Shown here piece after piece: positions 1 through 8,325 of a stretch of DNA of 8,325 bases. The stretch is taken from IMG/VR virus record IMGVR_UViG_2609460221_000006, positions 1-8,325 of that record. The stretch is one strand, 5' to 3'. The notes beneath the pieces were generated by a model. It had not been told where the DNA came from and searched no databases. It saw only the letters and a list, made by a program, of their open reading frames with translations. A program made the translations under genes and the position numbers. This DNA is from a virus (lineage: Duplodnaviria > Heunggongvirae > Uroviricota > Caudoviricetes). Numbering within the stretch: position 1 is the first letter of the stretch; every line of letters begins with the position of its first letter.

Positions 1-907
1 GTGCATCATCTAACGGGATTTCATCGGTCATAATGGCAGATTGCGCTTCGCGTGATTGCTTAAGCCACCATTTAATGGTGTCCCGATCAATGACTCCGCC
101 AGCAGTTTCCAGATCGATAGTCTTACTAAATTCCGGTCCCATATCTCCGGTTTGCGGATCGAAAAATATTGCACCTATTGAGATAATCGGGGCATCTGGA
201 TTTTTTCCCATGGTTTCAAGGTCGATCATTAGATGGTCACACGTCCCGCTGGTGGATGTGCCTTTATGATGACCGTTCACCTTAACTGAGTGATCTGTCG
301 CCTCGCCAGTTTCACTATCGCTATCGTGATGCTGATTGCCGCCAGGGTTCTCCTTGTGTGGATGTTCAGTGCCTTCCATTTCCTCCGGATCATTTTCCTG
401 AACTTCAACCTGATTCTCTTCATTGAATGTTTCCTGGTATGTTGCGTCGCCCATCACCGCGCCACAATCAGGGCAGTTGCCGCCGCCGGTCTGACCGCAG
501 GCGGTGCAGATCTTTTCCGGTTCCTGTTGCACTACTGGTTCAGGTTGTTTCGTTTCTGGCTCGTTTTGTAACGCATTTGGGCTGTTTTGTTCCGCTTTCT
601 GGCCGTTCTGTTCCGTTTCTTGCTGGTTCTGGTTCACAGAATCGCGGGTTTCCATCCCCTTGACCCATTTCGGATCATTCGGGTCGCTAATCCCTGCAAC
701 AAATTCTCCGCGAGAGGCCGCAAGCAACTTATCGGCGTCAGGCTGGCTGATATTGGCTGCCTGCATAATTTTGTTTACTTCGTCAGCGGTAACTTTTACC
801 TGATTAACCGGATCTATCTGTGCCTGAGTATCCAGCGATTGCGTGTCCTGGCGATGTTCAGTTGTATTCGGCTCCATTGCTTCAGTCGTTGCCTGTTCAT
901 CTGCCAT
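1..907 (-). CDS. recE: RecE-family exonuclease VIII, downstream portion (partial, runs off the window; separated from the N-terminal ORF by a frameshift)
   Basis: Minus-strand frame open from ATG 907 to position 1, translating [30 protein letters not shown]...[30 protein letters not shown]...[16 protein letters not shown]... The [10 protein letters not shown] / [13 protein letters not shown] blocks match what I recall of the middle of E. coli RecE. The same frame is open upstream across the stop of the 936-2144 ORF. Confidence 0.6.
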
Positions 908-935
908 TGCGTCAGACGGTTGTGATTTTTCCTCA

Positions 936-2144
936 TTAATTTTTTTCTTCTTCTGTTTCGCGTTCAGCAGCCAGTTCGCGGTTAACTTCTTCCAGGATAT
1001 CTTTTTCCGGTGTATGTCGTGCAGCAGCGAGAGTTTCCTCGGTAGGGTTCTCGTGATCAGTTTCCGTCAAATAGGCGTTGATATACCCCTGAAGGCGTCC
1101 CGGGTAGTGATAAAATTCAGGGTGTGCGCTTCGGATAAGTGCAAAAATAGCGGCGCGGGAATAATCCAGGATACCCGGGATTGCGCGAAGTGCTGCGGAC
1201 CATTCTTTGAACGGACTTTCTTTCTTCCGGACGACTTCTTTTGCGCGACGATAAACGCTGCCCGGAATTTCATAAATATTAAAATCCATCGGAAGTGTGG
1301 CCGCTGCAATCTCCACATCCAGCGTATCGAAGGTGTGTACTAAATTCGGATTGCGATCGGTTTTGTTCCCTCCACCGGCATTAGCACCGGAAGCCGTGCG
1401 GGTGATGCGTGAAACACGATTTCCTTTCATCCACTCTTTTGTCAGCAGACCGCGATCGGTGTAGTCAGCGCCCAGGTATGCTTCGAAAAAAGCAGTCATC
1501 AGTCCCAGGTCTGAATTACCAGGATTAGGGAAAACTTTGTCCGTGTCACGAACCAGTTTGTGGAGATCGCGAATTTCCAGCGGTTCGAGTTGCGCTGCTT
1601 TATTTGAGATGGCCAGCGCGGTAACGGCGGGAAGTTTTTCATCCTGTGCGTTATGTAATGTGCGCAGTTCGTCCCGCGAAACGTGTGTGATCGGTTTTTC
1701 GCTGCCGTGCTGTGCCAGCCATCGAACAGGCAGAATCTGACCTGAAACCGGCAGGAGCATGTTCTCCTCAATCTCAGCCATGTCTTCGCCGTTGACGTTG
1801 GTATTGTCAGTGCTGGCTGGTTTATCCTGAACAGAGGGCGAGGGCGCGATAAGTACCATTGTGATACCATCTTCACCGCCCTTTTCGTATCGGTTGCAGA
1901 ATTCGGTATCAAACACGCCTTCCGGAGGAAGGTCATTCACAACGGGTAAATGGACGCGAACAGGTTTTTTAAAATCCTCTTTGTCAAATCCGGCATCGTC
2001 CATTGCGACAACACCGCGTGATATTGCAACCGATAATTTTTTTGCTGTGCGCCAGTAAAAACCGCCTTTAATTCCAAGACGTTTTCTGATTTTGTCATTT
2101 TTGGCTTCGTAATATAGTGCAATTTCTTCTTTATCAGTGCTCAT
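936..2144 (-). CDS. recE: RecE-family exonuclease VIII, N-terminal 402 aa (ends at TAA 936-938, probably prematurely)
   Basis: 402-aa ORF with blocks [111 protein letters not shown], recalled as the RecE N-terminal region. GAGG Shine-Dalgarno 8 nt upstream of ATG 2144. Confidence 0.8.
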
Positions 2145-2221
2145 TGATAAACCTCATTACAGATTTAAGGGTGAACAAATCCCTGCCATTGCTGGCATAT
2201 AAAAATGAAACCGGATATTAA

Positions 2222-2425
2222 TTACGGTGCTGTTTTAAGCCCCGCCGGGATTTCGTTATTGTCCATGTGAATAACTTTATCGACCGGATAACAGTTGCCG
2301 GGAATTTTCTGTTCCGCTGCGGCAGCCATGCATTCTTTCATTGAGTTGTACATGCCGGTGATTGCATCAAGCGACTCACCAGTATTGAGATGTACAGTCA
2401 GAATGAGTACGAATAATGTGTTCAT
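2222..2425 (-). CDS. Small hydrophobic protein, 67 aa, YdfD-like by position (tentative)
   Basis: ATG at 2425 overlaps the dicB stop (ATGA coupling); GGAGA Shine-Dalgarno upstream. N-terminal hydrophobic segment MNTLFVLILTVHL. Its position directly after dicB corresponds to ydfD in the Qin dicB operon; sequence identity to YdfD is not verified. Confidence 0.5.
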   Translation of the reverse strand: MNTLFVLILTVHLNTGESLDAITGMYNSMKECMAAAAEQKIPGNCYPVDKVIHMDNNEIPAGLKTAP

Positions 2426-2610
2426 CGCCACTCTCCGAAAATACCGAGTTTAAGAAGGGCAATTCTGGAGAGTATGGAATTGTCATTCAGCAGGTAGGGT
2501 TCATATTTTCTCATATTGATTGCATCCTCGGTGAAATCCCTGTTACTGAGCAGAACACCAATATTAAAGCACCCGTCAGACGTATTAACGTTTGGTAGTG
2601 ACGTTTCCAT
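2422..2610 (-). CDS. dicB: Cell-division inhibitor DicB homologue, 62 aa
   Basis: Translation METSLPNVNTSDGCFNIGVLLSNRDFTEDAINMRKYEPYLL... matches the recalled DicB signature (LPNVNTSEGCFEIGV...FTEDAINKRK) at the same 62-aa length. GAGGA Shine-Dalgarno 7 nt upstream of ATG 2610; lies just downstream of DicF as in Qin. The ORF track's longer 97-aa version (to 2715) has no support for its N-terminal extension. Confidence 0.8.
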   Translation of the reverse strand: METSLPNVNTSDGCFNIGVLLSNRDFTEDAINMRKYEPYLLNDNSILSRIALLKLGIFGEWR

Positions 2611-2779
2611 TATCGCGTCCTCAACAATGAATTTTGTGATGCGGTGCCTGGTGCCTCCAGGTGACGTTAACCAGTTAACAATTAACGCCGGATACAGAGA
2701 ATCCACCCATAACACTGTTTTTGGTTTTAACTGTTCCGCGTGCGCTCAGCCGCATTCACCACATCACAAAATTCACTTT

Positions 2780-2822
2780 AAAAAGGGCGGCAGAGCAGTC
2801 ACGGAGTAAAACTGATACCGCC
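2780..2822 (-). terminator. Intrinsic terminator hairpin forming the 3' end of DicF
   Basis: Minus strand GGCGGTATCAG...CTGCTCTGCCGCC stem-loop followed by a run of 5 U (plus-strand A 2780-2784). Probably leaky, since dicB lies downstream in the same operon. Confidence 0.6.
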
Positions 2823-2837
2823 AAAAGTCACCAGAAA
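2785..2837 (-). ncRNA. dicF: DicF small RNA (Hfq-dependent ftsZ-targeting sRNA processed from the dicB operon transcript)
   Basis: Minus-strand sequence TTTCTGGTGACTTTTGGCGGTATCAGTTTTACTCCGTGACTGCTCTGCCGCCC followed by TTTTT, matching the 53-nt DicF as I recall it apart from one possible substitution. Ends in a GGCGG...CCGCC hairpin plus U-tract. The 5' end is processed, so it is approximate. Confidence 0.85.
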
Positions 2838-3172
2838 ATTGATAACAGAGGGCGTTGCAGCGGAGTTGTCACTTAAGCGTATGGTCAACCTGACAACCCG
2901 GTGTCCTCAACGGGGGAAGGAATAACCCCGCCATACTTACCGCCGCGCCATTTCGCGGATTGCCACAACCGGAAGCGCACGGTCGACGAAAATTTAACGA
3001 CAGGCTATCTATGAACCAGCTACCTCGCCGTGCGCTTTCGCGTTATGGTCTGACTTTTCAGGGAAATATCCTTTCAGTAAACTGTCAGTGCCGGATGCTC
3101 ACCCGTGTCCGGCGCACGCACTCCACCTCACCCGTGGAGAACTCCTTAATCACCAACCCTCAGGAGGGTGAA

Positions 3173-3448
3173 ATGTCGACTGAAAATGATGAAATCATTA
3201 ACTCCCTGATACGCCAGATTAATAATTTTGATAAAGCATTGCAACATGCTGCGGCGCGTAGTGATATAACTCTTTTAGCAATTTCATTTCTTGCATCTGT
3301 TATGGATAAAAATGAAGTCGTACGACAGAGTCTTGTTGATTATATCGACTCGCTTCAACCCGGCACTTTCAATCATGAGAGCTTCAATCATGAGAAAGAG
3401 CATGTTAAGTCTGTAATTAATTCTCTTATTTTGAATCAAAAGAATTAA
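3173..3448 (+). CDS. Hypothetical protein, 91 aa, in an AT-rich island (unknown function)
   Basis: Strong Shine-Dalgarno CAGGAGGGTGAA directly before ATG 3173. The in-frame upstream part of the ORF-track call (2960-3172) is GC-rich with no RBS and is rejected. Base composition drops sharply at 3173. Predicted mildly acidic and helical, with an FNHES-FNHE tandem repeat; no motif I recognise. Confidence 0.6.
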   Translation: MSTENDEIINSLIRQINNFDKALQHAAARSDITLLAISFLASVMDKNEVVRQSLVDYIDSLQPGTFNHESFNHEKEHVKSVINSLILNQKN

Positions 3449-3746
3449 TGCTTTTTGTTGCAAAGTAATTTTCAAGGGGTTCTATTCGAATCCCTTTCTT
3501 TTTCATTAACAAGCCAAACCCCTTATCAATGATGTCCATTAGATCCAGGAAGTATTTTTCATGTAAATCCTGGTTATCAGAGAGCTGCTTCTCTTCGTAC
3601 AGCCCGATAAAGGCTCGGCGTACGTTACCGGATATATTGTCGATGGTTTCTTTTTCTACGGTACTCAGGTCAAGAGTCGCCAGTTGAGAGCGAACCACAT
3701 TCGATGCCATTTCCTGGAATGGTACTGGTAAATCTTTAAATTCCAT
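3426..3746 (-). CDS. Hypothetical protein, 106 aa, in the AT-rich island (unknown function)
   Basis: ATG 3746 is preceded by GAGGT at good spacing. An alternative ATG at 3758 overlaps the upstream gene's stop (TGATG) and gives 110 aa. Co-oriented with the dicB operon, convergent with 3173-3448 and overlapping its 3' end by 23 bp. Acidic, helical, no recognisable catalytic motif. Confidence 0.6.
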   Translation of the reverse strand: MEFKDLPVPFQEMASNVVRSQLATLDLSTVEKETIDNISGNVRRAFIGLYEEKQLSDNQDLHEKYFLDLMDIIDKGFGLLMKKKGIRIEPLENYFATKSINSFDSK

Positions 3747-3757
3747 CGTCAACCTCA

Positions 3758-3910
3758 TCAGTCAGTGTTTCTGGTTAACCAGCGACGCGCGCCAGCTTCA
3801 GTTTTAAACGTTTTGCTTCTGGTATATGTCATCGCGGTAAACGTGCCGTCCTGGTTGGGAAACACGCCGCATACCAGAGATTCGTTGTTGCCAAGCTCGA
3901 TAGTATCCAT
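3758..3910 (-). CDS. Small protein, 50 aa, YdfA-like (DUF1391-like, tentative); first gene of the leftward operon
   Basis: ATG 3910 has a GAGGT Shine-Dalgarno 5 nt upstream. The longest ORF starts at 3991 (77 aa) but with a weaker RBS. Product MDTIELGNNESLVCGVFPNQDGTFTAMTYTRSKTFKTEAGARRWL resembles, from memory, the ~51-aa YdfA that heads the Qin dicB operon. Confidence 0.5.
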   Translation of the reverse strand: MDTIELGNNESLVCGVFPNQDGTFTAMTYTRSKTFKTEAGARRWLTRNTD

Positions 3911-4091
3911 GCTGACCTCATTTCCCCTTAACGCCGGGGTAGCGGAACAAAAACCTGCTGCATAGTTATTAAAGTTGAACCCTGCCGTCATGTTCTTACG
4001 CCTCGGGCTGGCTACTTAACCCCTGACCACTGCCGGGTAACTCGAAGTATTGCCTGGCGTTCTGTGGGGCGGGGTGGGTTGATGAATGAAC

Positions 4092-4131
4092 AATACCACT
4101 ACTATTTAATTATGTAAATAGCAGTGCTATT
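4092..4131. promoter_or_regulatory. Leftward (PL-like) operator region: two copies of a 16-bp AAATAG-N4-G(C/G)TATT site in opposite orientations
   Basis: 4116-4131 is AAATAGCAGTGCTATT on the plus strand; 4092-4107 reads AAATAGTAGTGGTATT on the minus strand. Together they form a 30-bp near-palindrome (4097-4126). The same motif occurs twice in the repressor/cro intergenic region. Lies upstream of the leftward operon, with TTTACA / TATTGT-like hexamers nearby on the minus strand. Confidence 0.45.
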
Positions 4132-4142
4132 ATCGTGGCAAG

Positions 4143-4164
4143 AAAAAAAACCACCCGAAGGTGG
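4143..4164 (-). terminator. Rho-independent terminator ending the paaR2-paaA2-parE2 operon
   Basis: Minus strand CCACC-TTCG-GGTGG hairpin immediately followed by 8 U (plus-strand A 4143-4150), 17 nt downstream of the parE stop. Confidence 0.7.
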
Positions 4165-4180
4165 TTGTTGACAGGAAGGA

Positions 4181-4471
4181 TTAACAGGTTTTGTTTGGAT
4201 ACTGTCTTCGTGAGTGAACTACATTTACGATCTCGATGTTAGATGCTGTTACTCGGTAAAGTATTATGTAGTTAGGATGAGTCACTATCTCACGAAGACT
4301 TGGAACTCTTTCGCTCGGTGGGTACAGATAAGGGTGTTCAGTAAGTGACAAAACTGATGTTTCAATGCGTATTTTTAGTCTACGTGCAGCGGGAGGGTTT
4401 TCCTTAGCAATATAGGCTACGATCTGACGTAAATCATCACGTGCAGAAGGTAGCCATAAAATGGGCAGCAT
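4181..4471 (-). CDS. parE2: ParE/RelE-family type II toxin, 96 aa (ParE2-like)
   Basis: Translation MLPILWLPSARDDLRQIVAYIAKENPPAARRL...REIVTHPNYIILYRV...IEIVNVVHSRR shows the ParE/RelE pattern. Start overlaps the stop of the upstream antitoxin ORF, a typical toxin-antitoxin arrangement. Confidence 0.85.
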   Translation of the reverse strand: MLPILWLPSARDDLRQIVAYIAKENPPAARRLKIRIETSVLSLTEHPYLYPPSERVPSLREIVTHPNYIILYRVTASNIEIVNVVHSRRQYPNKTC

Positions 4472-4662
4472 TACTCACTCCTGTTCGTTGCAGCTAATTG
4501 AGCAATAAGGTTTTCCATTTCAGCCATTACTTCGTCATGTGGAATTGCAGGACGGGGATCTGAGAGGCTTGCTGCCACTTTGGTTCGCAACCATTCGTTA
4601 TAGCTGTTTTCTTGTTCGACTGTTTCAAATTCAGAAATTATCGGGGAAAGGGCTGTACTCAT
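4471..4662 (-). CDS. paaA2: Small antitoxin, 63 aa (PaaA2-like), partner of ParE2
   Basis: 63-aa acidic ORF immediately upstream of, and coupled to, the ParE gene. GAGGAGG Shine-Dalgarno 7 nt before ATG 4662. Size and context fit the PaaA2 antitoxin of the paaR2-paaA2-parE2 module described in E. coli O157:H7 prophages; the name is by synteny and recall. Confidence 0.7.
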   Translation of the reverse strand: MSTALSPIISEFETVEQENSYNEWLRTKVAASLSDPRPAIPHDEVMAEMENLIAQLAATNRSE

Positions 4663-4679
4663 GTTTTTACCTCCTCAGA

Positions 4680-5181
4680 TTAGGCGCGACGACCCTTTTG
4701 CGCAGCTAGCCATCGCGCAACGATTTCTTCAATTGATTCTTTTTTCTCCTTCATTTCCTTAAGCATTTTCTCTTTATCTTCTTTGGGGAAAGCCCTGAAC
4801 GTCTGGAGCAAATCCCGCTCCATGGGGTCTATATTAAACGGAAGTTCGTTTTCCGATTGTTCCATATCTGCAGATATAGTGACAACATTGTCCTCCCCAG
4901 ATTCTTGGGGATACATCCTTACAATTTGTAACAACTCGGCCATATCTGGTCTGATTGACTCGGGAGGAACTTGCAGCAACCCTGCGAACTTGATAACAGC
5001 CTCAAGATTTAAAGGTGTCTGACCATTTAGATAATGGCTTACAGCTCCCTGTGTCGAAAATCCCAGAATTTCTGCCGCACGCTCTTGGGTTAACCCTAGT
5101 TGAATTTTTTTTCGCCGTCCAGATTTCTTTCAGTCTCTGGGCGGCTTGCAGGTCGATCTCTGACAGGGATTTTCTTTTCAT
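4680..5181 (-). pseudogene. paaR2: Lambda cI-like HTH repressor (PaaR2-like), reading frame broken in an A8 run
   Basis: ATG 5181 with GAAGG Shine-Dalgarno gives MKRKSLSEIDLQAAQRLKEIWTAKK, then the frame is lost in the A8 run (plus-strand T 5105-5112). The -1 frame continues (KK)IQLGLTQERAAEILGFSTQGAVSHYLNGQTPLNLEAVIKFAGLLQVPPESIRPDM... to TAA 4680. The joined N-terminus closely resembles the lambda CI N-terminal domain ([27 protein letters not shown]...). The intact-frame tail is the 4680-4979 ORF in the track. Confidence 0.75.
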
Positions 5182-5288
5182 ACCTTCAATTCTAATAAGA
5201 TTATTAATCTCTTTGAAATAGTGATGCTATTTACTTTTAAAAATAACAATGCTATTAATGATCGTGATGACATCACATGAGGTGAACA
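5182..5288. promoter_or_regulatory. Divergent promoter/operator region between the cI-like and cro-like genes (PRM/PR analogue)
   Basis: Two direct copies of the 16-bp motif, AAATAGTGATGCTATT (5216-5231) and AAATAACAATGCTATT (5241-5256), 25 bp centre to centre. A 13-bp perfect palindrome GTGATGACATCAC (5264-5276) and TAATAA-GA-TTATTA (5193-5206). Candidate rightward promoter TTTACT-N17-TATTAA. GAGGTG Shine-Dalgarno before ATG 5289. Confidence 0.55.
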
Positions 5289-5564
5289 ATGAATCTTGGA
5301 GAATATTTGCATCATTCCGGTATAACTCAGAAGCATTTTGCTGAAATTGTTGGGGTAACCCAAGGGATGGTAAGCCATGTCATTACCGGACGGGCGAAAC
5401 TTACGGGGAAAAAAATTTTACGCTGGTGCGAAGCAACAGGCTGGATAGTAACTCCGCACGAGATTGATGGCAGTACTTATCCCAACCCAACCGACGGCTT
5501 ACCTGTCGAGTATCAGGCTAACACACAACCAGAGGCGGGGGTGATTCATGAAAATCAAGCATGA
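5289..5564 (+). CDS. ydaS: Cro-like HTH DNA-binding protein, 91 aa (YdaS-like)
   Basis: HTH segment ITQKHFAEIVGVTQGMVSHVITG. Divergent from the cI-like gene across an operator-rich spacer; Shine-Dalgarno GAGGTG at 5279-5284. Confidence 0.8.
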   Translation: MNLGEYLHHSGITQKHFAEIVGVTQGMVSHVITGRAKLTGKKILRWCEATGWIVTPHEIDGSTYPNPTDGLPVEYQANTQPEAGVIHENQA

Positions 5565-5584
5565 ACACATCCGCATGGCAATGA

Positions 5585-5974
5585 ATGCCTGGGCGCATCC
5601 GGACGGCGAAAAAAGTACCGGCTGCGAAAATTACCAAAGCGTATTTCGAGCTGGGAATGACGTTCCCGGAACTGTATGACGACAGCCATCCGGAAGCCCT
5701 GGCCCGTAATACCCAGAAAATTTTCCGTTGGCTGGATAAAGACACCCCTGATGCTGTTGAAAAAATGCAGGCTCTGTTACCGGCGATCGAAAAGGCGATG
5801 CCGCCTTTGCTGGTGGCCCGTATGCGCAGCCACAGTTCTGAATATTACCGTGAGATCGTCGAACGGAGGGATCGGCTGGTGAAGGATGTCGATGATTTTG
5901 TTGCGTCAGCGGTTGTTTTGTATGACCAGATGAATCGCGGCGGCCCGGCAGGGAATGCTGTGGTGATGCACTAA
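5585..5974 (+). CDS. ydaT: YdaT-like (CII-analogue) protein; longest intact frame shown, native start probably ATG 5548 with a frameshift in an A6 run
   Basis: The 129-aa ORF from ATG 5585 has no Shine-Dalgarno and begins right after an in-frame TGA. ATG 5548 has a strong GAGGCGGGGG RBS and overlaps the cro-like stop; it encodes MKIKHEHIRMAMNAWAHPDGEK and then leaves the frame at the A6 run 5609-5614. One A fewer would give a ~140-aa product, the size I recall for YdaT. The gene name is by synteny with Rac ydaS-ydaT. Confidence 0.6.
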   Translation: MPGRIRTAKKVPAAKITKAYFELGMTFPELYDDSHPEALARNTQKIFRWLDKDTPDAVEKMQALLPAIEKAMPPLLVARMRSHSSEYYREIVERRDRLVKDVDDFVASAVVLYDQMNRGGPAGNAVVMH

Positions 5975-5996
5975 AAGCACGGTGTTCGGGGGTTTT

Positions 5997-6959
5997 ATGA
6001 GCAGCAAGCTTCATGGTCTTGTCTGGGAAGGGTGCGCCTTCACCGGCATGATCTTATCCAGGGTGGCGGTTATGGCCCGTCTTGCAGACTACAGCAATGA
6101 CGAGGGCGTGTCATGGCCTGCCATTGAAACTATCCGGCGTCAGATCGGTGCAAGAAGTGAATCCACAGTGAAATCGGCTATTGCAGAACTGGCGAAAGAG
6201 GGCTGGCTGACGAAGGAAGAGCGTAAGGTCGGTGGGCGTAATGTAAGCAATATCTATCGGCTTAATGTGGAAAAACTCGAAGCAGCTGCGGCGGCGGCGC
6301 GTGAGTCATATAAACCGAAAAGAAAAATTAGCCCGGCAAAAAATGACCCGTTAACAGTTGACCCGTCAAATATTGCCCCCTCAACGGTTGACCCGTCAAA
6401 TTTTGATGGATCAACTGTTGATAAAAAACTGCCGATTAGGGGGGCGATGATTGACCCCGATCCGTCAGTATTAAAACCTGATCCGTCAGATAAAAGATCT
6501 TCTTGTCCGGACGCTTCGCAACCGGACCCGCAGACGGCTGAACAGGATTTTTTAACCCGACACCCTGACGCGGTTGTGTTCAGTGCGAAAAAACGCCAGT
6601 GGGGAAGTCAGGAAGATTTGGTGTGCGCACAGTGGATCTGGGGACGAATCGTGAGTCTTTACGAGCAGGCGGCCAGCTATGATGGCGAGATCACTAGACC
6701 GAAAGAACCCAACTGGACAGCATGGGCCAATGACGTTCGCACAATGCGGATGCTGGATGGCAGAACTCACAGACAAATTTGTGAAATGTTTGGGCGTCTC
6801 CAGCGGGATTCGTTCTGGGTAAAAAACATCATGAGTCCGGCAAAACTCCGGGAAAAATGGGATGAACTGGTTATCCGCCTGGGGCGTTCGCCTGCGCAGC
6901 GTTGCGTGAATCACATTTCTGAACCGGACACTGAAATACCGCCGGGATTCAGGGGGTGA
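5997..6959 (+). CDS. Replication initiator, lambda O analogue (YdaU-like), with origin iterons inside the gene
   Basis: 321-aa ORF from ATG 5997 (GGGGG upstream); GTG 5982 is an alternative start. N-terminal winged-helix-like region ...VSWPAIETIRRQIGARSESTVKSAIAELAKEGWL. The central coding region carries tandem DNA repeats that encode the repeated TVDPSN / DPS peptides. Sits between the cII-like gene and the DnaC-like loader. Confidence 0.7.
   Translation: MSSKLHGLVWEGCAFTGMILSRVAVMARLADYSNDEGVSWPAIETIRRQIGARSESTVKSAIAELAKEGWLTKEERKVGGRNVSNIYRLNVEKLEAAAAAARESYKPKRKISPAKNDPLTVDPSNIAPSTVDPSNFDGSTVDKKLPIRGAMIDPDPSVLKPDPSDKRSSCPDASQPDPQTAEQDFLTRHPDAVVFSAKKRQWGSQEDLVCAQWIWGRIVSLYEQAASYDGEITRPKEPNWTAWANDVRTMRMLDGRTHRQICEMFGRLQRDSFWVKNIMSPAKLREKWDELVIRLGRSPAQRCVNHISEPDTEIPPGFRG
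6356..6489. repeat. Iteron cluster: putative replication origin within the O-like gene
   Basis: AGTTGACCCGTCAAAT at 6356-6371 and GGTTGACCCGTCAAAT at 6386-6401 (each containing the inverted pair TTGAC/GTCAA), TGTTGATAAAAAA at 6417-6429, and GATCCGTCAG at 6458-6467 and 6480-6489. Iterons inside the initiator gene are the lambda ori arrangement. Confidence 0.55.
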
Positions 6960-6965
6960 CGTGTC

Positions 6966-7712
6966 ATGAAAAACATTGCGGCAGTTGGGGTTCTTGAACG
7001 TATTCGCAGACTTGCACCACAGGGGTCGGTTCCACCGTACCGGACGGTGGAGGAGTGGCGGGAATGGCAACTTGCTGAAGGACGAAAACGCAGCGAGGAG
7101 ATTAACCGCCAGAATCGCCAGTTGCGGGTGGAAAAAATCCTGAATCGTTCGGGCATCCAGCCTCTGCACAGCAAATGCTCGTTTGCAAATTATCAGGTGC
7201 AGAACGACGGGCAAAAATACGCGCTGAGCCAGGCCAAATCCATAGCTGACGAACTGATGACCGGGTGCACGAATTTTGTGTTCAGCGGTAAAACCGGCAC
7301 CGGGAAAAATCACCTTGCAGCGGCGATGGGCAACCGGCTGATGGTGAAGGGGCGCAGCGTGATTATCGTCACCGTGTCTGACGTCATGAGCGTGTTGCAT
7401 GACAGCTACGACAACGGCAAATCCGGGGAAAAATTTTTACAGGAGCTTTGCGGGGTTGATTTGCTGGTCCTGGATGAAATAGGCGTTCAGCGGGAGACGA
7501 AAAACGAGCAGGTGGTATTGCACCAGATAATTGATCGCCGGACAGCATCACTGTGCAGTGTCGGGATGTTAACAAACCTGAATCATGCCGCAATGAGTAC
7601 GCTTCTTGGTGAGAGGATTATGGACCGCATGACCATGAACGGTGGTCGATGGGTGACGTTTAACTGGGATAGCTGGCGTCCAAATGTCAGCAATATGAGG
7701 GTTGTGAAGTAA
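6966..7712 (+). CDS. ydaV: DnaC-like helicase loader / IstB-like AAA+ ATPase, 248 aa (YdaV-like)
   Basis: Walker A FSGKTGTGKNHLAAAMG and Walker B DLLVLDEIG. AGGGGG Shine-Dalgarno before ATG 6966, which follows the O-like stop by 6 nt. Confidence 0.85.
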   Translation: MKNIAAVGVLERIRRLAPQGSVPPYRTVEEWREWQLAEGRKRSEEINRQNRQLRVEKILNRSGIQPLHSKCSFANYQVQNDGQKYALSQAKSIADELMTGCTNFVFSGKTGTGKNHLAAAMGNRLMVKGRSVIIVTVSDVMSVLHDSYDNGKSGEKFLQELCGVDLLVLDEIGVQRETKNEQVVLHQIIDRRTASLCSVGMLTNLNHAAMSTLLGERIMDRMTMNGGRWVTFNWDSWRPNVSNMRVVK

Positions 7713-7733
7713 TTTTGTCCGGAGGAAATTTTA

Positions 7734-8325
7734 ATGGAAACCGTATCTGACGCACTGAAAGCACTGAAAAAAGCCTCTTCACATGTGGTGGCAGCTCGCC
7801 TTGGAATCAGTCGTGAAGAGGCTGTCAACGAGCTGTGGGAACTCAAAAGAAAAGGCGTCGTTGATAAAACTGGTCACACCTGGTTTCTGGCTGGCGAAGG
7901 TGAATCCCGGGTAACCGAAGAGCGGCCAGTAAAATCTGAAGCACAGGATATGCTGACCGGGGAGGTCGAACAAAAAGTTACCGCAGACATGATGATTGAG
8001 TTTATCGGTCAGGATGGGGCTAAAACGTGTGAGGAACTGGCGGGTAAGTTCAGTGTCAGTACTCGCAAGGTTGCTTCCACGCTGGCGGTGGTAACCGCAA
8101 CGGGGCGGCTGGCACGCGTTAATCAGAACGGTAAATTTCGTTACTGCATGCCGGGCGATAATTTACCAGCAGAGCCGAAAGCCGCGCTGGTAACGGAAAG
8201 TGATGGTAAGGCCTTTCCTCAGCCAGCAGGTGCTGCGTTACCAGTCCGGGAAGCCGCAACACAGGAAGAAATTAAAACAGAAACTGTGGCGGACATTGTG
8301 CAGCCGTTGCCATCGTTTACCGAAA
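7734..8325 (+). CDS. Hypothetical prophage protein, partial (runs off the right edge), with two winged-helix-like segments
   Basis: GGAGGA Shine-Dalgarno 7 nt before ATG 7734; frame open to the window end (197 codons), so it is absent from the ORF track. Translation METVSDALKALKKASSHVVAARLGISREEAVNELWELKRKGVVDK...CEELAGKFSVSTRKVASTLAVVTATGRLARV. Corresponds in position to the gene after ydaV in Rac. Confidence 0.6.
   Translation, partial: METVSDALKALKKASSHVVAARLGISREEAVNELWELKRKGVVDKTGHTWFLAGEGESRVTEERPVKSEAQDMLTGEVEQKVTADMMIEFIGQDGAKTCEELAGKFSVSTRKVASTLAVVTATGRLARVNQNGKFRYCMPGDNLPAEPKAALVTESDGKAFPQPAGAALPVREAATQEEIKTETVADIVQPLPSFTE

Follow-up and report, generated by a model that had tools for sequence, protein, structure and literature searches.

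Gene organization at the exonuclease locus

The window, i.e., the whole stretch of 8,325 nucleotides that was analyzed, ends inside an exonuclease gene on the minus strand. This gene is seen in two parts that lie in different reading frames, and the features around the break are as follows.

936..2144, minus strand: 5' part of the exonuclease gene, from the open reading frame (ORF) list; 402 codons and a premature TAA (938-936)
1..937, minus strand: 3' part of the exonuclease gene, in the +1 frame; residues 403-714 of an 818-amino-acid protein, running off the window edge
940..946, minus strand: A7 run (plus-strand T7), equal in length to that of intact relatives, from comparison of the window with the locus of Escherichia coli strain 7/2
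938..939, no strand assigned: the lesion, one of two identical bases being extra (plus-strand A -> AA; coding-strand T -> TT)

The minus strand at the site reads ...GAA GAA AAA AAT TAA TGA GG..., with the A7 run at 946-940 (plus-strand T 940-946) just 5' of the TAA, and window positions 935-946 read CATTAATTTTTTT. The first-pass annotation had described a TAA at 936-938 right after the A7 run, and both the minus-strand reading and the 402-amino-acid ORF agree with this description. It had also described the next frame as open across the break and RecE-like up to the window edge, which is borne out by translation, the +1 frame being open from 1066 to the window edge. The product of 936..2144 is identical to residues 1-402 of WP_001542183.1, and after the removal of one base the identity to this protein is 714/714, indicating that the two ORFs encode adjoining parts of a single protein. 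A single BLASTP alignment to RecE likewise spans the break, which lies in an acidic linker of the protein and corresponds to about residue 385 of RecE.

No start codon was found in the +1 frame between 1066 and the stop, and the first ATG of that frame, at 907, is without a Shine-Dalgarno sequence. Translational coupling at the TAATG overlap was considered and rejected, as the ATG opens the wrong frame, with a 40-amino-acid ORF at 814-936. Since there is no usable downstream start and the TAATG lies in the wrong frame, the nuclease domain would be lost if the insertion is real, apart from rare slippage on the A7 run.

Position of the lesion

A 701-nt query around the site gave full-length matches in more than 1,000 complete E. 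coli genomes, the top-ranking ones each covering 700 nt, i.e., with one gap. The best match was the exonuclease locus of E. coli strain 7/2 (NZ_CP023820), here called L001. Window positions 1-2635 aligned to strain 7/2 with 0 mismatches and a single gap, at 938/939. The window reads CCTCATTAATTTTTTTC, compared to CCTCATTATTTTTTTC in L001, with the length of the T7/A7 run unchanged. On the plus strand, CATTA-T7 has become CATTAA-T7, and on the coding strand, AAT AAT GAG has become AAT TAA TGA G. When base 938 was removed, the translation of 714 residues matched the N-terminal 714 residues of the 818-amino-acid "exonuclease" WP_001542183.1 without a mismatch. The DNA of positions 1-2635 and the 714 residues are therefore identical to those of strain 7/2 once one base is removed, and the window differs from strain 7/2 in having the extra base at 938/939, which leads to a stop after codon 402.

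These results are not consistent with a change in the length of the A7 run, as had been proposed in the first-pass annotation. The relatives keep A7, and the duplicated base directly adjoins the run. The proposed repair, one A fewer, does restore the frame, but it gives the substitution N402I, which is contradicted by the relatives. The reading that A7 should be A6 was rejected on these grounds, as it results in N402I and the relatives carry A7.

Domain composition of the exonuclease

Two domains of the gene lie in the window, one on each side of the break.

1578..1982, minus strand: RecE-type N-terminal domain (PF06630, Exonuc_VIII), residues 55-189
11..235, minus strand: start of the DEDD domain (PF16473, Rv2179c-like/DexA-like), with the Exo I motif MIDLETMG inside

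Judged by its domain composition, the gene is not a true recE; it is predicted to encode a RecE-like N-terminal region of about 600 to 630 residues fused to a DEDD 3'-5' exonuclease domain. The N-terminal part is clearly related to RecE, as PF06630 scored 99.7 bits on the window ORF (cutoff of 25). A BLASTP comparison of the intact relative with K-12 RecE gave one alignment, with a reported span of 51-681 versus 43-650 and 52% identity, although it is plain that the homology stops near residue 620 of the intact relative and near residue 600 of RecE, leaving about 570 residues at 52% identity. With the NCBIfam RecE equivalog model NF007259, the score was 908.7 bits (cutoff of 1269) and the match was confined to positions 1-602 of the 877-position profile, whereas K-12 RecE (b1350) scores 1830 on the same model. 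A CxxC-(9)-CxxC stretch at about window positions 463-511 (minus strand) is conserved with K-12 RecE in an otherwise low-complexity linker and is possibly a zinc ribbon in the RecE N-terminal region.

The C-terminal part is different. K-12 RecE has PF12684, a PD-(D/E)XK nuclease domain, at residues 615-850, and the intact relative has PF16473 instead. For PF16473, the score was 94.8 bits with the part inside the window and 227.3 bits with the full-length relative, both above the Pfam gathering cutoff of 27. In a PDB search, the RecE nuclease domain was not matched, and the only sequence relatives of the DEDD domain were 8KEL and 8KEN (T4 DexA), the match to 8KEL covering residues 638-771 with an E value of 1.6e-6 and 30 bits. 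Candidate Exo II (NGANFD) and Exo III (HNALDDARY) motifs were read in the sequence of the relative beyond the window edge. The gene thus resembles K-12 RecE of the Rac prophage in its N-terminal approximately 600 residues, in PF06630, and in an equivalent early-left operon position. It differs in that the C-terminal domain of RecE is a PD-(D/E)XK 5'-3' nuclease (PF12684), while the relatives of the window gene have a DEDD 3'-5' domain (PF16473) and no recT. In RecE, the PD-(D/E)XK nuclease domain has been placed at residues 564-866, and the N-terminal domain is without a known function (PMC11611040). The likeness to T4 DexA and its bacterial homologues lies in the C-terminal domain, which matches 8KEL/8KEN, and, putatively, in the DEDD motifs, of which II and III are candidates. 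However, the match to T4 DexA is distant (30 bits), and here the domain is fused to approximately 630 RecE-like residues. A bacterial DexA homologue, EcD of the "HREX" defence, was reported in 2025 to degrade 5hmC DNA and to protect against T4 (PMC12153337). The literature was searched for Rv2179c-like domains in prophages, without a hit.

The gene neighborhood was compared in L001, where the gene occupies positions 2088-4544, and in the matching prophage locus of E. coli WP4-W18-ESBL-09 (L042). In both, the gene lies between DUF1482/dicB genes and xis-int, and the window shows the DUF1482/dicB side and ends inside the gene. No recT was found beside the gene in either locus, with excisionase and integrase directly downstream of it, whereas K-12 has recT. 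The label recE given in the first-pass annotation therefore holds for the RecE-like N-terminal region but not for the gene as a whole, given the score below the equivalog cutoff, the replacement of PF12684 by PF16473, and the lack of recT in relatives. Window positions 600-1300 were matched in 4090/5426 complete E. coli genomes, a count that includes true recE and other variants. In the phage vB_EcoM-606R7 (ON470580.1; L046, 1187-3630), a more distant allele with approximately 90% identity to the window is annotated as two "exodeoxyribonuclease VIII" CDS.

Distribution of the insertion allele

With a 72-nt query centered on the site, 177 complete E. coli genomes were found to have the local sequence but not the insertion allele; 174 of the 177 matched with a 1-nt gap, and none matched at 100%. 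An exact pattern accepting either allele found the local sequence in 22 IMG/VR contigs and 17 JGI/ENA metagenome contigs, many of the latter being SPAdes NODE contigs and hence Illumina based. All of these pattern matches had the 32-nt wild-type length, so that the insertion allele was found in 0/22 and 0/17, respectively. With a looser pattern, other length variants at the site were not found, and the pattern scan of GTDB species-representative genomes was without a match. A second carrier was also not found when the whole window was compared by megablast with complete E. coli genomes and with phage records or, for the 938/939 insertion, in exact-protein look-ups with the 402-amino-acid ORF and with fragments made by other insertions. 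As far as these 216 matching sequences indicate, the insertion at 938/939 is private to the window (0/216). The first-pass annotation had suggested that relatives with two ORFs and the same stop would argue against a broken gene; no relative has this arrangement.

The exact 402-amino-acid product is recorded on only one sequence, a 1,242-nt Logan contig (L002; SRR35867611) that is present in 3 samples, corresponds to window positions 939-2180, and ends at 939 with no stop codon. The inserted base would be the very next one after this end, a position that fits a branch between two alleles and a real insertion but that is explained equally well by a second gene copy differing at position 969. 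The exact-protein look-up can return only contigs ending at that codon. Because the look-up selects such ends and the second copy explains the end equally well, we rejected the end of L002 as evidence for a real branch and regard it as uninformative, usable neither for nor against the insertion. Unitigs built with k=31 stop 30 nt from any variant, and this is the distance that separates the other contig end (2180) from the mosaic boundary (2150/2151). The contig ends probably reflect de Bruijn graph branching between multiple prophage exonuclease copies.

The distribution of the allele also bears on recoding, in which some full-length exonuclease would result if ribosomes shifted by +1 or transcription slipped on the A7 run. 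A/T runs are known slippage sites in E. coli, and the A7 run is located immediately 5' of the stop. The frame would be regained, at the cost of the single change N402I, in an mRNA one A shorter or if Lys-tRNA slipped by +1 on AAA-AAA. The site is similar to programmed frameshift sites (prfB +1, dnaX -1, and the A-runs of IS elements) in having a slippery A-run before a stop and a continuation in another frame. Recoding sites are conserved, however, and this configuration is conserved in no relative. The split is absent from the 177, 22, and 17 relatives, all of which have one uninterrupted ORF with the same A7, and the frameshift is one base away from the identical wild-type sequence, in which the gene is a single ORF. 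As every relative has one ORF with the same A7 run, programmed recoding is essentially excluded, and we consider it extremely improbable that the site serves to produce full-length enzyme. At best, slippage here would amount to incidental leakiness rather than a programmed event. With a real insertion and slippage on the A7 run, the gene would give mostly the 402-amino-acid fragment and a trickle of full-length DexA-like exonuclease, i.e., an accidental attenuation switch, for which we see hardly any chance. Were it true, the prophage nuclease concerned is one that may act in phage defence.

Additional insertions in the window

Three further single-base differences were found when the rest of the window was compared to its relatives.

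4143..4150, plus strand: A8 run with one extra A compared to A7 in L042; intergenic
5103..5104, plus strand: extra A (A -> AA; GA-T8 -> GAA-T8) before a T8 run, from comparison with L042
5609..5614, plus strand: A6 run with one extra A (A5 in relatives), from comparison with L042

The window is a mosaic of two prophages. Positions 1-2635 are identical, apart from the extra base at 938/939, to the potC-adjacent prophage of strain 7/2, positions 2411-8325 correspond to the ompW-adjacent prophage of WP4-W18-ESBL-09, and positions 2411-2635 are common to both partners. The combination was not found in complete genomes, where the best whole-window coverage was 84%. Positions 2411-8325 are identical to L042 except for the three 1-nt insertions, all of which add one A on the plus strand. 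At 4143, the A8 allele was found in 1/42 complete genomes. The event at 5103 is of the same kind as that at 938/939; it splits a cI-like HTH repressor gene, which is intact in L042 (166 amino acids), into ORFs 4680-4979 and 5002-5181, and it was found in 0/68 complete genomes. In the immunity region, a RelE/ParE-RelB toxin-antitoxin pair lies directly beside the prophage repressor gene (window 4181-4662, minus strand; annotated in L042). The insertion at 5609 splits a YdaT-family gene, also intact in L042, into ORFs 5548-5679 and 5585-5974, and the A6 allele was found in 0/2027 complete genomes. The same change from A5 to A6 in YdaT is present in two draft assemblies (L044, 10001-10390, GCA_000529555.1; L045, 1289-1678, Logan SRR16060697) on a slightly different background, where the product is 129 amino acids from an internal ATG. 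On that background, A6 was found in 0/2442 complete genomes. The recurrence of YdaT A6 is either a recurrent error or a recurrent hot-spot mutation.

Over its whole 8.3 kb, the window therefore differs from its nearest relatives by four insertions, without a single substitution. Homopolymers of 5 or more bases make up 4.8% of the window, and every insertion falls within or immediately next to one, which has a probability of about 5e-6 by chance. Three of the four are at three of the five runs of at least 7 bases in the window. In two cases, one base next to a T7 or T8 run is doubled, and the length of the run is unchanged.

Origin of the frameshift

Four insertions, no substitutions, and a position at or beside a homopolymer in every case are the signature of sequencing or assembly error. 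The divergence of E. coli strains consists mostly of substitutions. In mutation-accumulation spectra of E. coli, indels amount to approximately one tenth of base substitutions in the wild type and approximately one quarter in mismatch-repair mutants. With those ratios, the probability that four of four events are indels is roughly 7e-5 to 3e-3. An origin in a mismatch-repair mutator was rejected, as it predicts neither insertions beside runs nor the lack of transitions. Long-read assembly errors have been described as predominantly homopolymer-associated indels that fragment genes, including cases in which the single base after a run of another base is called twice (PMC12007338). The window resembles such long-read or flow-based assembly errors (Kastor, PMC12007338) in its indel-only profile, in the involvement of A/T homopolymers, in the doubling of a base beside a run, and in having several genes split within a few kilobases, the likeness being one of pattern alone. 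From this pattern alone we infer that the insertions would have arisen in the sequencing process rather than by mutation.

The frameshift is thus very probably an error of sequencing or assembly rather than a biological inactivation. A single spurious base would have been called beside a 7-base homopolymer in an indel-prone assembly, and the underlying gene would be an ordinary intact 818-amino-acid prophage exonuclease of a kind common in the lambdoid prophages of E. coli. The first-pass annotation had left the choice between a homopolymer sequencing error and real inactivation; error is the better supported of the two, given the private allele and the four indels with 0 substitutions, although the proposed mechanism, a change in homopolymer length, does not hold. 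To speak of inactivation of the recombination exonuclease is doubly doubtful.

The alternative is that a real and very recent private 1-bp insertion (coding-strand T to TT after A7) pseudogenized the exonuclease in one strain, as part of ordinary prophage decay. The stop and the change of frame are present in the sequence, prophage accessory genes are under weak selection, and the downstream frame has no usable start, so that the nuclease domain would be inactivated. In phage vB_EcoM-606R7, moreover, the annotated version of the gene consists of two CDS, with the split at another place. Genuine mutational hot spots likewise include homopolymers, and not all four insertions need be errors, as the A6 run is found in two other assemblies and the A8 run in one complete genome. 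However, the allele at 938/939 occurs nowhere else in the 216 matching sequences, and it is accompanied by three private or near-private +A insertions with no substitutions in 8.3 kb. The same rate genome-wide would amount to thousands of frameshifts per genome, and one frameshift per 2 kb genome-wide is not viable. The event is also located beside the run and not inside it, an unusual place for slippage, and the doubling of a base beside a run is not expected from replication slippage. We therefore consider a real insertion unlikely. If it is real, it leaves a 402-amino-acid N-terminal fragment and removes the DEDD nuclease domain, which would be an unremarkable private loss of an accessory nuclease.

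Implications for the prophage genes

If the frameshift is an artefact, as we think very probable, annotation of a recE pseudogene at this locus would be mistaken in two respects. A prophage repressor gene and a YdaT gene would likewise be reported falsely as broken within these 8.3 kb, and there are probably many more false frameshifts in the source assembly. The finding itself is an ordinary one and is chiefly a quality-control warning on the source assembly.
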